24,000 nucleotides of DNA from Marinicellulosiphila megalodicopiae (GCF_045862395.1 NZ_AP023087.1:1487404-1511403); one strand, 5' to 3'; positions 19,710-24,000 are shown, numbered from the stretch's first letter. A program made the numbers and translations. The notes: generated by a model not told the origin, from the sequence alone.

Positions 19710-22700
19710 ATGAACAAAATTATATTCTTATTTGTAATCATTTATAGTCTTACTGGATGTGGTTCGGATACGAAAATTGAAAGTGTTGATAATTATTCGA
19801 ATAATGATGCAGAACAAACAAGTGTTAATTCTGAATTAGAAACTGATTTGAATACAAGTATATTAAATCCAAATGAGACCGAAACTGGGAGTGGCTTCGA
19901 TATTAATAACGGCCAACGCCTGTTTGCATCCTCTGACTGCTCTGGTTGTCACATCGACAAGCAAGACGGTACAAGTGCTGGGGTTTTTCCTTTTGATGTA
20001 AATGCCCTTAAATTTCCAAATAGTGATGATTATTCGCAAGCCACCCAAGCAGAGCTGGCTCGTTATATAGAGCTAACCATGCCCACTACAGACCCAACGC
20101 AATGTGACGCAGCTTGTTCAGCCGATATTGCGCAATACTTATGGTCATTTTACGTAGCAACGCAAACACCTGTTAAGACCGAAACGCCTGCTGAAACCGA
20201 AACACCTGTTGAGACTGAAACCGATACTTCTGTTGACCCATTAATGGGTTACTCACTTAAGTCATCCGAAAAAGAATCTTTTAATTTAATTGGCATTTAT
20301 AATGTTGCCTACGGTGCTAATGGTGAGTTTGAATTTTTAAATAATCAAACAGGCCAACTTACTTGTGCAAATGAAACATTTGGCAAAGACCCAATTCCTG
20401 GCGTTAAAAAAAGCTGTTACGTAGAATTTGTAGCGCAGTTTTCAACAGATTCTGAAAAATTATTTAATGAAAAAACCTGTAACCTTTGTCACTCACAAGG
20501 CAAACAACTCCCTAATTTAGCGCAATTAATAAATAACAATACCCTTGTAAATGTAATTCATACACAAATGCCAGTTAATAATATTACTGCCTGTGTCGAT
20601 GACTGTGCAGAAATCTTGGCTCAATACATTATCAATAGATTTTCTTCAAATATAACTGAAACAGAAACGCAAACTGAAACTCAGACAGCAACAGAAACCA
20701 TAACCATAACTGAAACTGAAACTGAAACTGAAACTGAAACTGAAACTGAAACTGCAACTGCAACTGAAACTGAAACTCAGACAGAAACGCAAACTGAAAC
20801 AACTGCCGACATTGGAAATGGAAAACGTTTATTTGCCTCTGCTGTTTGCTCCCAATGCCATACCGATGAATTAAACGGAAGTGTATCTGGTGTATTTCCT
20901 TTTAATGTTAATAATTTAACATTTTCAAAAGGCGATGCTTACGAAAAAGATTCTGAAGCTGAACTAGCGCGTTACATTAAAGAAACGATGCCTAATTCTG
21001 ATGCCACTGTGTGTCGAGAAATTTGCGCAAGAGATATTGCTGCTTATCTATGGACGTATTATTCACCTGAATCACAAACTTCTGAAATTTATGAATTACG
21101 CCCTGAGTCTTACTTACGTAAAGCAAAAAATATTTTAACGGGCCTTGCTATTACACAAGACGAATTAGTCGCGGTTCAAGAAGATCCTGCTGCTATGGAT
21201 TTATTAGTGAGACAGTGGGTAGAGCATCCTAATTTTATGACAAAAATTGAGCCTTTTATAAAAGACAGTTTACAAAGTCATACTCAAGTTGGTCGCTTGC
21301 AAGTCCCACCGTTTATTTTAGGAACCGAAGCGGCTGCTGCCATTATTTTAAGAGGGCAAGACCAAGACATTTATGAAAATATTAGTAGCTACGCTCATCG
21401 TACCTTTATGAAAATTGTTGAAGATGAACAACCTTTTACTGATTTTGTCACAACCGAGCAATGGCAAATGACCCCTGCATTAATGAGTTTTATGATTGCA
21501 GGTGATGCAAAGCCTGCTAAAGATGATGAAACATTAACACTTAAAATTTCAGATTGTGACCAAACGGTTCCACTGGCTAAAATGGTAAGAGATCGTTTTT
21601 ATTGCATACCTCAAGCAACCGTTTCTTCTATCCAACGAGATTTTATAAACAATAGAGACATAGGTGGCATGTGGGCAAGAATCATGACTGCAAATGGTAT
21701 TGGTCAAAACGGTACGGTTAAAATAATGAAACCAAGTGATTTTAATACTTGGAAAACCGTAACAATAAAACCAATTACTGCTGACACACCAAAAGATGCC
21801 ATCATATCACCTTTTGATTTAGCGGAACTACGAAATGCAGACACAATTTATGTGAATGTACCTCGCCCTGGATTTTTTAATACGTTCCCATTTTTAACTA
21901 AATGGCGTACCAACGTTGATAACGAATTTCGTGTAACGGTTAACCAAATGTTAATTGTGGCTTTAGGTAGCCCAATATCTATTGGCGATGACTCAATTCC
22001 ATTTAGCACCATTGGTCTTGATGAAGAACACGCAAGCCAACCTGATTGTACTGCGTGTCATCAATTACTTGATCCGATGCGTGACTACTTTATGCGTGTC
22101 TATGATGCGAACTGGTCAAAACCTTTAAATAGAATATCGCCTCGCATGCCAAGCTTTACCTTTTCTGGACACTCTGATGATAGCGGACCAGAGCTAACTG
22201 ATTTAGCACGTGCTATTTCTGAGCATCCTCAATTTGCTGAGGCCTGGGTTGTGAAACTTTGTATGTACACAAACTCAACACCATGTTCAACAAGTGACGA
22301 CGAAGTACAGCGTGTTGCTCAAATATTTAAAGATTCCGATTTTAACTTTAAAGAATTAGTGATTGCGTATTTTAGTTCTGACTTAATTAAAACCCTTGTT
22401 GAAAATCAAACAACACTGGCAACCCCTTCAATTACGTCTGTTACCAGAAAAAATCATTTTTGTTTCAACTTAAAATCGCGCATGGCAAAAGTGGCCGGCA
22501 AAACCAATAATTTATATGAGCCATGTAATGACTCAAAACTGAATGTAAATAAAGTAGCGGCAGGTTTGCCATCTGATGAATGGGTTCGTGGTAATGAACA
22601 ACCCGATCAACCGACGATTCCTGATTTATTTCATTATTCAGCTAGTGAAGGTATTTGTTTGAATGTTGCAAAAAATAAACTAGGCAGCGCTGAAATGCCA

Positions 22701-22918: not shown

Positions 22919-24000
22919 ATGAATGAATTACGTAGAGATTTACTAAAATACATAAGTACTGGCAGTGCAACGGTTCTATTAAGATCAGTTGTCTCAGGTA
23001 TTCCTGCTGCTGCATTACTGACTATGTCAGCACCATCAATGGCGGCTAACTCTAGAAATGAAGAGGCCATGCCTCCGCAATTTTTAATGTTCAGTATGCG
23101 AACTGAAGGCGACCCAATGAACATTAACTGTCCTGGATCTTACGATTCAGGTGTTGATGTTGTGGTTAATAATCCTAGCCCTAAATTAGCACCTGTTGAG
23201 GTTTCACTTGGTGGTCAAATACATAGAGCATCGACGCCTTGGAGCACTTTACCCCAATGGGCTTTAGATCGAACGGCATTTATTCATCACAGAACTTACC
23301 AAGGCATTCATTCGCAATTTGGTAACGTGATGGAAATGGTGGGTAAAACGCGCGGCCCAGAAGGCGAAGCGAATTTTCCAGATCATTTGTCCTCAATCAT
23401 TTCTCATGCAATGGCTGAACCTGATCGTTTTGGCACCATTCAAAGTCGCCCTATTCGTTTTGGCGGTGGCGGAGTTAAATACCAAAACCAATCCGTACAA
23501 GAAATGTCGCCTTCTGCATTACAAAGTTTGTTTGATGCGCCTAGCGGTGTTGAAAAGCAATTGCAAGATTTACGCGACCAAGAAGTTAATAAATTTTCAG
23601 ACATGCTTAAACAAACGGGTAATAAAAAAGCGAGTAAATCTCAAACATTATGGCTTGATCAACACATTCGCTCTAAAGAAGAATTGCGTTCGTTAAACAT
23701 ACAGTTACTTGAAGGTTTTACTAAAATAAACAGTGGCGATTTACATGACCAAATTGATGCAGCGCTGCTTTGTTTTAAATTAAATCTATCATCTGTTGCA
23801 ACCATTGGCATTCCATTTGGTGGTGACAACCATAACGATGAAGATTGGGAAAACGAAATTAACGGCACAATAAGTGGCTGTAATGATATGACATATTTTT
23901 TCAATCGTATTGAAGCTGAAGGCTTAAAAGACCAAGTAACCTTAGCAAATTTAAATGTATTTGGTCGTACATTCAGACAAATAAGAACAGGGCGTTCACA
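22919..24000 (+). CDS. Tat-signal protein, DUF1552-like (possibly DUF1501-like), 5' partial view (runs off the window)
   Basis: This ORF is absent from the ORF track because no stop is reached. I translated it by hand from the ATG at 22919 and found it open to position 24000 (360 codons). AAGGGG lies 7 nt upstream, and the start is 11 nt after the lipoprotein stop. The N-terminus MNELRRDLLKYISTGSATVLLRSVVSGIPAAALLTMSAPSMA-AN has a twin-arginine RRxLLK motif, an h-region and an AxA-like site. Later blocks (LQSLFDAP, LDQHIRSKEELRSL, IDAALLCFKLNLSSVATIGIPFGGDNHND and NVFGRTF) resemble DUF1552/DUF1501 conserved blocks as I recall them. Confidence 0.8.
   Translation, partial: MNELRRDLLKYISTGSATVLLRSVVSGIPAAALLTMSAPSMAANSRNEEAMPPQFLMFSMRTEGDPMNINCPGSYDSGVDVVVNNPSPKLAPVEVSLGGQIHRASTPWSTLPQWALDRTAFIHHRTYQGIHSQFGNVMEMVGKTRGPEGEANFPDHLSSIISHAMAEPDRFGTIQSRPIRFGGGGVKYQNQSVQEMSPSALQSLFDAPSGVEKQLQDLRDQEVNKFSDMLKQTGNKKASKSQTLWLDQHIRSKEELRSLNIQLLEGFTKINSGDLHDQIDAALLCFKLNLSSVATIGIPFGGDNHNDEDWENEINGTISGCNDMTYFFNRIEAEGLKDQVTLANLNVFGRTFRQIRTGRS

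Follow-up and report, generated by a model that had tools for sequence, protein, structure and literature searches.

The window analysed here is a stretch of 24,000 nucleotides (nt) from Marinicellulosiphila megalodicopiae (NZ_AP023087.1, genome 1487404-1511403), whose single-contig genome of 4.65 Mb has a G+C (GC) content of 36.1% and is 98.9% complete. The window ends in two genes on the plus strand, one for a large lipoprotein with four haem-attachment motifs and one for a DUF1501-like partner exported by twin-arginine translocation (Tat). The lipoprotein gene (19710..22907), identified by translation of its open reading frame (ORF), encodes a 'big' protein of 1065 aa, carries a GAGGTG ribosome-binding site 5' of its ATG and closes with TAA at 22905-22907. 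The AAGGGG ribosome-binding site of the partner gene (22906..22911, plus strand) overlaps this stop, and the partner ATG follows at 22919, leaving an intergenic gap of 11 nt. The window holds 22919..24000 of the partner gene, that is, the first 360 of its 459 codons; the gene ends 298 nt past position 24000, and the complete product recovered from the genome has 459 aa. An earlier interpretation made from this DNA alone, referred to below as the sequence-only reading, had described a 1065-aa lipoprotein with an LTGC lipobox and four CxxCH motifs, followed 11 nt later by an ORF with its own AAGGGG site and a twin-arginine signal ending in SMA-AN. ORF translation and motif counts bore out the former, and the latter was read as claimed.

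The sequence-only reading had also taken the two genes for an envelope module that is conserved as a unit, and the genomic comparison agreed. Among 80 related loci from a species-genome collection, almost all of them from Myxococcota, 79 had room downstream of the large gene, and in all 79 a partner homologue lay directly downstream on the same strand, far more often than chance would give; metagenomic contigs showed the same arrangement. Around the 80 loci, no conserved third gene was found, the largest cluster comprising 15 loci and the clusters being mostly spurious high-GC frames. The genome of M. megalodicopiae itself holds five pairs of this family, all five in the same gene order; three further DUF1501 pairs are more distantly related. 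In the family's five pairs, every large protein carries a lipobox and the core CxxCH and every partner the two arginines of the export signal, whereas the number of extra CxxCH domains varies from 0 to 3. TatC is encoded in the genome, as are the haem-attachment proteins CcmF and CcmC. The residue after the lipobox cysteine in the five large proteins is G, Q, G, D and D, and these differing residues may mean different membrane sorting.

The 1065-aa protein begins with MNKIIFLFVIIYSLTGC, in which a predicted lipoprotein signal peptide (19710..19760, plus strand) comprises a hydrophobic stretch and the lipobox L-T-G-C at residues 14-17, which ends in Cys17 and has Gly at position +2. The Pfam model LPAM_1 scored 16.3 bits on this protein (cut-off 20), and the residues read from the sequence fit the lipobox pattern [LVI][ASTVI][GAS]C. 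Exactly four CxxCH motifs are present: CSGCH at residue 77, CNLCH at 257, CSQCH at 380 and CTACH at 780. The first three lie in small domains, all on the plus strand. Cytochrome c domain 1 (19893..20159) is of the X183 type and class I, and combines CSGCH with a Met-Pro ligand motif and a C132-x3-C136 disulfide motif; domain 2 (20442..20645) contains CNLCH and C295-x3-C299 and is covered by Pfam Cytochrome_CBB3 and Cytochrom_C550 stretches; and the X183-type domain 3 (20808..21050) contains CSQCH and C435-x3-C439 and gives the best Cytochrome_CBB3 stretch (residues 367-447). Cytochrome_CBB3 reached 73 bits over three stretches, and these were the sole significant Pfam matches of the protein. 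Domains 2 and 3 are joined by a Thr/Glu-rich linker of 51 residues (residues 315-365, 20652..20804), coded by 6/12-nt repeats (repeat family D1, spacing 12 nt), and a two-cysteine module of about 55 aa (YGANGEFEFLNNQTGQLTCANETFGKDPIPGVKKSCY, 20259..20435), which has no Pfam match, separates domains 1 and 2.

The solved structures closest to the cytochrome domains were 8q1w and 8q1v ('putative lipoprotein') and 7b21 (Cbp2D). Domain 1 matched 8q1w (TtX183A, E 7e-4) and 7b21 (CjX183) in the PDB; the alignments extended over full-length domains (8q1w, E 7e-4 and 3.5e-3; 7b21, E 8e-3), and domain 3 also aligned end to end. The CxxCH, the 'MP' containing the Met ligand and the disulfide motif C-x3-C-A-x-D-I-A-A-Y were all in register. 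The codes are tied to the X183 domains of TERTU_2913 and Cbp2D by domain descriptions and PDB molecule names, and do not occur in the text of the paper. By their sequences, the three N-terminal haem domains are thus X183-type class I cytochromes c, with haem binding predicted.

The family-defining part of the lipoprotein is its C-terminal domain of 606 aa (residues 460-1065, 21087..22904, plus strand), which is mostly helical in an AlphaFold2 model (predicted local distance difference test, pLDDT, 84; predicted template modelling score, pTM, 0.87). It contains the fourth haem motif, H774-A-x4-C780-T-A-C-H784-x3-D-P-x-R791 (22029..22082, plus strand). In A1, an alignment of 31 C-terminal domains, this motif is conserved in 31/31 members, and 56 columns are invariant, including the motif itself (H315, A316, C321, C324, H325, D329, P330 and R332 in the numbering of the alignment) and several cysteines. 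The His and the CxxCH..DP are invariant too in A3, an alignment of 26 canonical DUF1587/1595/1592/1588/1585 proteins. Comparison of A1 with A3 by hhalign gave a probability of 97.3% (E 2.5e-11) over 187 columns that comprise the C-terminal half of PSCyt3 (DUF1588), the haem motif and PSD2 (DUF1585), and delimited a homologous core at 21783..22403 (plus strand). The homology spans the central ~200 residues; the flanking N-terminal ~230 and C-terminal ~170 residues are family-specific. The match stopped short of the PSD3, PSD5 and PSD4 regions, and no Pfam match to DUF1587, DUF1595 or DUF1592 was found in the window protein (E<=0.1) or its 31 relatives (E<=0.05). The likeness to DUF1585, DUF1588 and DUF1592 proposed in the sequence-only reading thus holds for the first two as remote homology, but not for DUF1592.

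Scores of the 1065-aa protein against other models of such proteins remained below the Pfam cut-offs, at 18.8 bits for PSD2/DUF1585 (25.8), 16.3 for DUF1800 (26.1; over ~80 residues) and 15.3 for PSCyt3/DUF1588 (27). Pfam found none of PSCyt1 (PF07635), PSCyt2 (PF07583) and PSD1 (PF07587) in it. Among the 31 relatives, PSCyt2 gave weak matches in 20 (best E 1.3e-4), DUF1800 (PF08811) gave weak matches in seven, and PSCyt1 and PSD1 were found in 0/31. A Foldseek search of the PDB with the modelled C-terminal domain gave no relative, the best E being 0.54 and the membrane-transporter matches being noise, and PDB searches with the 1065-aa sequence or the C-terminal profile gave no relative beyond the X183 matches. 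A word-indexed search returned 30 relatives, of which the distant named ones were 27-32% identical, 600-760 aa long and from Myxococcota; PF13442 cytochrome c was present in only three of the 30 (45-61% identical) and PSD2 in three, with none in the rest. An exhaustive profile search of 1.84 billion representatives yielded 1358 matches at E<=1e-3 and 579 at E<=1e-30. Judged by these sequence searches, the C-terminal domain is a real family of modest size. Its Myxococcota members are lipoproteins that consist of the C-terminal domain alone and have one haem site, their signal peptides showing lipobox-like ends before the Cys (e.g. AAC, GC).

The partner starts with a predicted twin-arginine signal peptide (22919..23050, plus strand; MNELRRDLLK...), composed of L-R-R-D-L-L-K, a hydrophobic stretch and the cleavage motif ...PSMA/ANS. 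In A2, an alignment of 39 partner relatives, R5 and R6 are kept in at least 90% of the sequences, A43 is near-invariant and the A-x-A site is conserved. The hydrophobic region of the signal is oddly conserved in the same 39 relatives, with L21 near-invariant and G27 and P29 invariant, a possible sign that a dedicated chaperone, or the lipoprotein itself, recognises the signal. A candidate active-site span (23111..23833, plus strand) contains D65 (GDPxN), T126 (HHRT) and G301-G-D303-N-H305, and R359, H361, H365 and H366 follow near or past the end of the window; D65, T126, H131, D303, N304, H305, R359, H361, H365 and H366 are all invariant or near-invariant in A2.

The partner fragment inside the window had no Pfam or NCBIfam match. 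The whole partner scored 21.6 bits against DUF1501 (PF07394; cut-off 27), over model positions 230-341 only, and its tandem paralogue scored 34.1 bits. More than 570 partner relatives were found; most of the 120 listed carry a precomputed PF07394 annotation, and the named ones are Myxococcota. In hhalign, the partner aligned with a canonical DUF1501 protein of the same genome with 95% probability over the C-terminal ~165 residues, its GGDNH facing GGFDTH and its FGRT..GRxH facing FGRT..GKDH. These comparisons mark the partner, as far as sequence goes, as DUF1501-like and probably a member of a divergent DUF1501 subfamily. DUF1552 was considered as an identity for the partner and rejected: there was no Pfam match, and hhalign against the genome's own DUF1552 protein gave a probability of 0.4% (E 0.14). 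Of the two families named in the sequence-only reading, DUF1501 is therefore retained and DUF1552 is not, and no kinship between DUF1501 and DUF1552 is claimed here.

An AlphaFold2 model of the partner (pLDDT 84.6) matched in Foldseek only PDB entries of the alkaline-phosphatase superfamily, namely sulfatases, LtaS, alkaline phosphatase, iPGM and ENPP, all of them weakly. In the model, the conserved D65, T126, D303, H305 and H361 appear to follow predicted strands in the manner of the metal ligands and nucleophile of that superfamily. A formylglycine sulfatase was examined as a candidate and rejected, since C/S-x-P-x-R is not conserved; the sole match, SRPIR, occurs in the window copy, 1/39 members at that column.

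Three kinds of paired genes already described resemble the window pair. Modules of PSCyt1/PSCyt2/PSD1 (DUF1549/DUF1553) with DUF1501 have been reported in Planctomycetota and Verrucomicrobiota (Kamneva et al., 2012, PMC3542564; He et al., 2017, PMC5615132), and DUF1800 + DUF1501 pairs in Proteobacteria (PMC5122149). Like the window pair, both place a Tat-signal DUF1501 protein beside a large exported protein, often with CxxCH; they likewise include F5/8 type C or other carbohydrate-binding modules (CBMs), occur as many paralogues per genome and have no assigned function. However, the window protein differs from the former in having no PSCyt1 or PSD1, with PSCyt2 appearing weakly in relatives and not in the window protein, and from the latter in that its DUF1800 match is below threshold; only the C-terminal ~165 residues of the window partner match the DUF1501 model, and the window family is centred on Myxococcota, not on the Planctomycetes-Verrucomicrobia-Chlamydiae (PVC) phyla.

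The third kind is the canonical DUF1592/DUF1552 type, which has the same gene order as the window pair, the exported partner being encoded after the large haem protein. In the large protein, remote homology covers the haem-motif region and the next ~120 residues (the C-terminal half of PSCyt3 plus PSD2). Accessory cytochrome c domains and CBMs are frequent in canonical DUF1592 proteins, as in the window family. In contrast to the canonical order PSD3-PSD5-PSD4-PSCyt3-PSD2, PSD3, PSD5 and PSD4 were not detected in the window protein, whereas in the one canonical copy of the genome (590333-593949) they scored 75, 55 and 129 bits, respectively; the canonical partner is DUF1552 (HXXSHH), whereas that of the window is DUF1501-like. 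The canonical module of this genome consists of three genes (block L014, 5765-9949; genome 589764-593948). The stop of a cytochrome b561 gene (Ni_hydr_CYTB) overlaps the start of the canonical large gene, whose product combines cytochrome c, PSD3, CBM60, PSD5, PSD4, PSCyt3 and PSD2, and the DUF1552 gene (303 bits) begins 1 nt later. The linkage to cytochrome b561 is a hint that such systems may draw on membrane electron transport or the quinone pool. The kind of system is already known; what is new is the haem-domain subfamily, the divergent DUF1501 that accompanies it, the connection to X183 and the five-fold expansion beside polysaccharide genes in a genome without a lytic polysaccharide monooxygenase (LPMO).

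The X183 link connects the window protein with two proteins of polysaccharide-degrading marine or soil Gammaproteobacteria, Cbp2D of Cellvibrio japonicus and TERTU_2913 of Teredinibacter turnerae, in which CAZy X183 cytochrome c domains are combined with a C-terminal X132 with CxxCH. In TERTU_2913, X132 is a large C-terminal domain with one more CxxCH and without a characterised homologue, and the window protein resembles TERTU_2913 in being a lipoprotein (or at least having a signal peptide), in carrying several small X183-type domains on flexible linkers and in ending in a CxxCH domain. Unlike the window protein, Cbp2D and TERTU_3803 bear CBM2, CBM10, X158 and X122 domains. The X132 domain is likened to the window C-terminal domain by published architecture, not by sequence; the names of Cbp2D and TERTU_2913 were not among the homologues listed by word-indexed searches with the window protein and canonical DUF1592 queries, and the papers on these proteins do not mention a DUF1501 or DUF1552 neighbour. 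The 'DUF1687' given for the N-terminal end of X132 is probably DUF1587, in which case X132 would be of the canonical type. The sequence-only reading had held that pairs of this kind have no experimentally assigned function. This holds in that no biochemical function has been assigned, but proteins combining X183 with a C-terminal CxxCH do have experimental data, namely the Cbp2D knock-out and the TERTU_2913 structures; the cbp2D knock-out grew poorly on insoluble cellulose.

As proposed for Cbp2D, the X183 haems of the window protein could reduce the copper of a secreted LPMO. Its X183-type domains resemble CjX183, which reduces LPMOs slowly in vitro, and its gene has polysaccharide-related neighbours. 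However, the single-contig, 98.9% complete genome contains no LPMO_10 gene, in contrast to Cellvibrio and Teredinibacter, which have LPMOs; the Teredinibacter X183 domains failed to activate their cognate LPMO; and the obligatory DUF1501 partner would be left unexplained. We therefore regard a role as LPMO electron donor as very improbable.

The polysaccharide-related neighbours begin immediately outside the window. A second pair follows the window pair after 173 nt; its large protein, of 1089 aa, combines an F5/8 type C domain with two cytochrome c domains, and its partner has 456 aa. Next comes the gene of a lipoprotein of 1119 aa, in which an F5/8 type C domain is joined by three two-cysteine modules and an alginate-lyase-fold domain. 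These three genes occupy positions 6876-15006 of the downstream block L003. The only strong terminator-like hairpin in the region lies after this alginate-lyase-fold gene (L003 15026-15056), and the other promoter and terminator predictions in the region were no better than in shuffled sequence. A five-gene transcription unit across both pairs and the alginate-lyase-fold gene is possible. Of the five paralogues, three contain an F5/8 type C domain, the lipoproteins neighbouring the pairs carry CBM35, beta-helix, alginate-lyase-fold and solute-binding-protein domains, and CBM_6 and ricin-lectin genes adjoin relatives in other genomes. PSCyt proteins have been remarked in the literature to bear CBMs often.

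Several further features of the neighbourhood and of the paralogues were recorded. The other pairs (genome 1382209-1399321 and 4603618-4612344) adjoin runs of paralogous lipoproteins with Thr/Gln/Glu-rich linkers, among them CBM35 proteins, one that combines F5/8 with a beta-helix and another, of 1451 aa, that ends in a solute-binding domain. The two-cysteine module, with the consensus YGANGxFxYLNNQxGxxxCxNxxFGxDPxPGVKKxCY over ~50-55 aa, is present in five exported proteins of the genome, among them the neighbouring alginate-lyase-fold lipoprotein with its three copies (L003 11647-15006) and proteins at genome 109359-113162 and 2571787-2573028; possibly it is a carbohydrate-binding or linker module not described before. 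Repeat search (family D2) and local alignment showed that a segment of 556 nt (20164..20719, plus strand), which spans a Thr/Glu linker, the two-cysteine module and cytochrome domain 2, shares 91% identity with the gene of the tandem paralogue (L003 7072-7633), the next lipoprotein gene beyond the window. The C-terminal domains of the tandem paralogues, by contrast, share only ~35% protein identity. Because of this disparity, the segment indicates a probable recent gene conversion or module exchange between the tandem paralogues. Upstream of the window pair, the intergenic tract 17938-19709 (1.77 kb, 24.7% GC) contains one doubtful 132-aa ORF without a Pfam match and may be a large regulatory region.

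Considering the domain content, the strict pairing, the conserved residues, the export and maturation machinery and the carbohydrate-related neighbourhood observed here, we propose, with moderate confidence, that the two genes form one operon for a two-protein, haem-wired envelope enzyme system acting on a carbohydrate-derived substrate. In this scenario, the lipoprotein would be exported by Sec and anchored by its lipid, and the Ccm system would attach four haems to it. The three X183-type domains on their Thr/Glu-rich linkers would serve as an electron relay to the periplasmic electron carriers of the cell, and the fourth haem would be bound at HA-x4-CxxCH-x3-DP inside the 600-aa helical domain. 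The partner, expected to be pre-folded because it is exported by Tat, would adopt an alkaline-phosphatase/sulfatase fold, its cluster of Asp, Thr, Asp-x-His and His being placed where the superfamily binds metal or carries its nucleophile. We infer that the helical haem domain may dock the DUF1501 enzyme, that the X183 haems would carry electrons towards the core haem or away from it, and that the pair, located in the periplasm or on the surface of the cell, would convert a carbohydrate-derived substrate by haem-dependent chemistry.

Several observations weigh against this proposal. The paralogues differ in how many extra haems they have (0 to 3), the Myxococcota members have the single core haem only, and no conserved redox partner is encoded beside the Myxococcota members in the 80 loci; given the single haem in Myxococcota and the variable extra haems, the relay would be accessory and lie outside the core mechanism. 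The partner's fold is weakly assigned, the best Foldseek E being 5.7e-4 with a template modelling (TM) score of ~0.3, and neither its sequence profile nor a single-sequence search found a PDB match. The carbohydrate link consists only of gene neighbourhood and accessory domains. To our knowledge, enzymes of the alkaline-phosphatase superfamily are hydrolases or transferases, not redox enzymes, and are not known to need electrons, and we know of no experiment on any member of the window family.

An enzyme fold without a known need for electrons, together with a family in which most members have one haem, makes a hydrolase with a sensing or structural haem a serious rival. Here the pair would scavenge nutrients by hydrolysis: the DUF1501 protein would be a metal-dependent hydrolase of phospho-, sulfo- or phosphono-esters, the lipoprotein its anchor or substrate-binding subunit, and the core haem either structural or a redox or gas sensor that gates activity. 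The probable alkaline-phosphatase-superfamily fold of the partner, with a conserved Asp/Thr/Asp-His/His set typical of hydrolases, is consistent with such a pair, as are the single haem of the core members with no encoded redox partner and the variable number of cytochrome domains among the paralogues. However, the haem motif is invariant and common to the canonical family, the gammaproteobacterial copies have repeatedly gained electron-transfer X183 domains, the canonical module lies in an operon with a cytochrome b561 gene, and the sulfatase motif C/S-x-P-x-R is missing from the family. Weighing both sides, we consider a hydrolytic pair unlikely, though it deserves to be kept in view.

The number of haems could also be read as an extracellular electron-transfer conduit, in which a multi-haem outer-membrane lipoprotein would deliver respiratory electrons to metal oxides or other insoluble acceptors, with only an incidental role for the partner. 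Four haem sites in a lipoprotein whose Gly at +2 fits the default outer-membrane sorting rule point in this direction, as does a weak match of the 1065-aa protein to the MtrC/MtrF domain (E 0.0076, below the cut-off). The haems, however, lie in separate domains on long flexible linkers and are not packed into a wire, one haem per protein is the rule in the family, the coupling to the alkaline-phosphatase-fold enzyme is strict at the 79 loci, and no porin or periplasmic decahaem partner is encoded nearby. A conduit thus seems scarcely credible for this family.

A further, rather doubtful possibility is that the pair is a new kind of LPMO-independent, carbohydrate-active redox enzyme. A catalytic c-type haem, held in a fold without a solved relative, and an alkaline-phosphatase-fold metalloprotein would then act together on polysaccharides, algal or other, modifying or cleaving them by oxidation or reduction, with electrons fed in by the X183 domains. 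If this were true, it would explain both the abundant PSCyt/DUF1592/DUF1800 + DUF1501/DUF1552 pairs and the cellulose phenotype of Cbp2D.

The sequence-only reading had suggested horizontal acquisition of the pair from a contrast in GC between the gene and the DNA before it. The counts behind it were reproduced (33 G/C of 60 nt in 20041-20100 and 13 of 120 nt in 18301-18420), but the argument does not hold: the lipoprotein gene (37.7% GC) and the partner gene (40.2%) are ordinary for this genome, in which ORFs of at least 300 aa average 36.9% with a standard deviation of 3.7, and the tetranucleotide distance of the 12.9-kb module falls at the 74th percentile of equal-sized genome windows. As for the 1.77-kb tract upstream, it is intergenic DNA, AT-rich like the genome as a whole. 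An old transfer is nevertheless plausible from the distribution of the family among taxa and from its tree. The window family was found in 0/299 genomes sampled evenly across the class and in 1/40 related genomes, that one being of the same genus, whereas 321 related stretches among species genomes were almost all from Myxococcota. In a FastTree phylogeny with local support only, midpoint rooting and several rows of deviant composition, the window copy grouped with two metagenomic proteins and a Thalassocella blandensis metagenome-assembled genome, and next with its tandem neighbour, in a clade beside marine Myxococcota; a second clade, next to Polyangiaceae, united the same-genus copy with the three remaining paralogues. 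The simplest reading of these data would be an old transfer, in one direction or the other, between Myxococcota and marine Gammaproteobacteria, followed by duplication.

Few unexplained gene pairs are as abundant in Planctomycetota, Verrucomicrobiota, Myxococcota and elsewhere as those that join a cytochrome-like protein to DUF1501 or DUF1552. The window pair defines a distinct, Myxococcota-centred subfamily of them, built on a 600-aa haem domain without a Pfam model or structural relative. It also provides a sequence-level bridge from such pairs to the X183-type extracellular cytochromes Cbp2D and TERTU_2913, the only relatives with genetic or structural data. The complete genome of M. megalodicopiae, with five pairs set among CBM- and lyase-type lipoproteins and no LPMO, separates this system from the LPMO-partner hypothesis.

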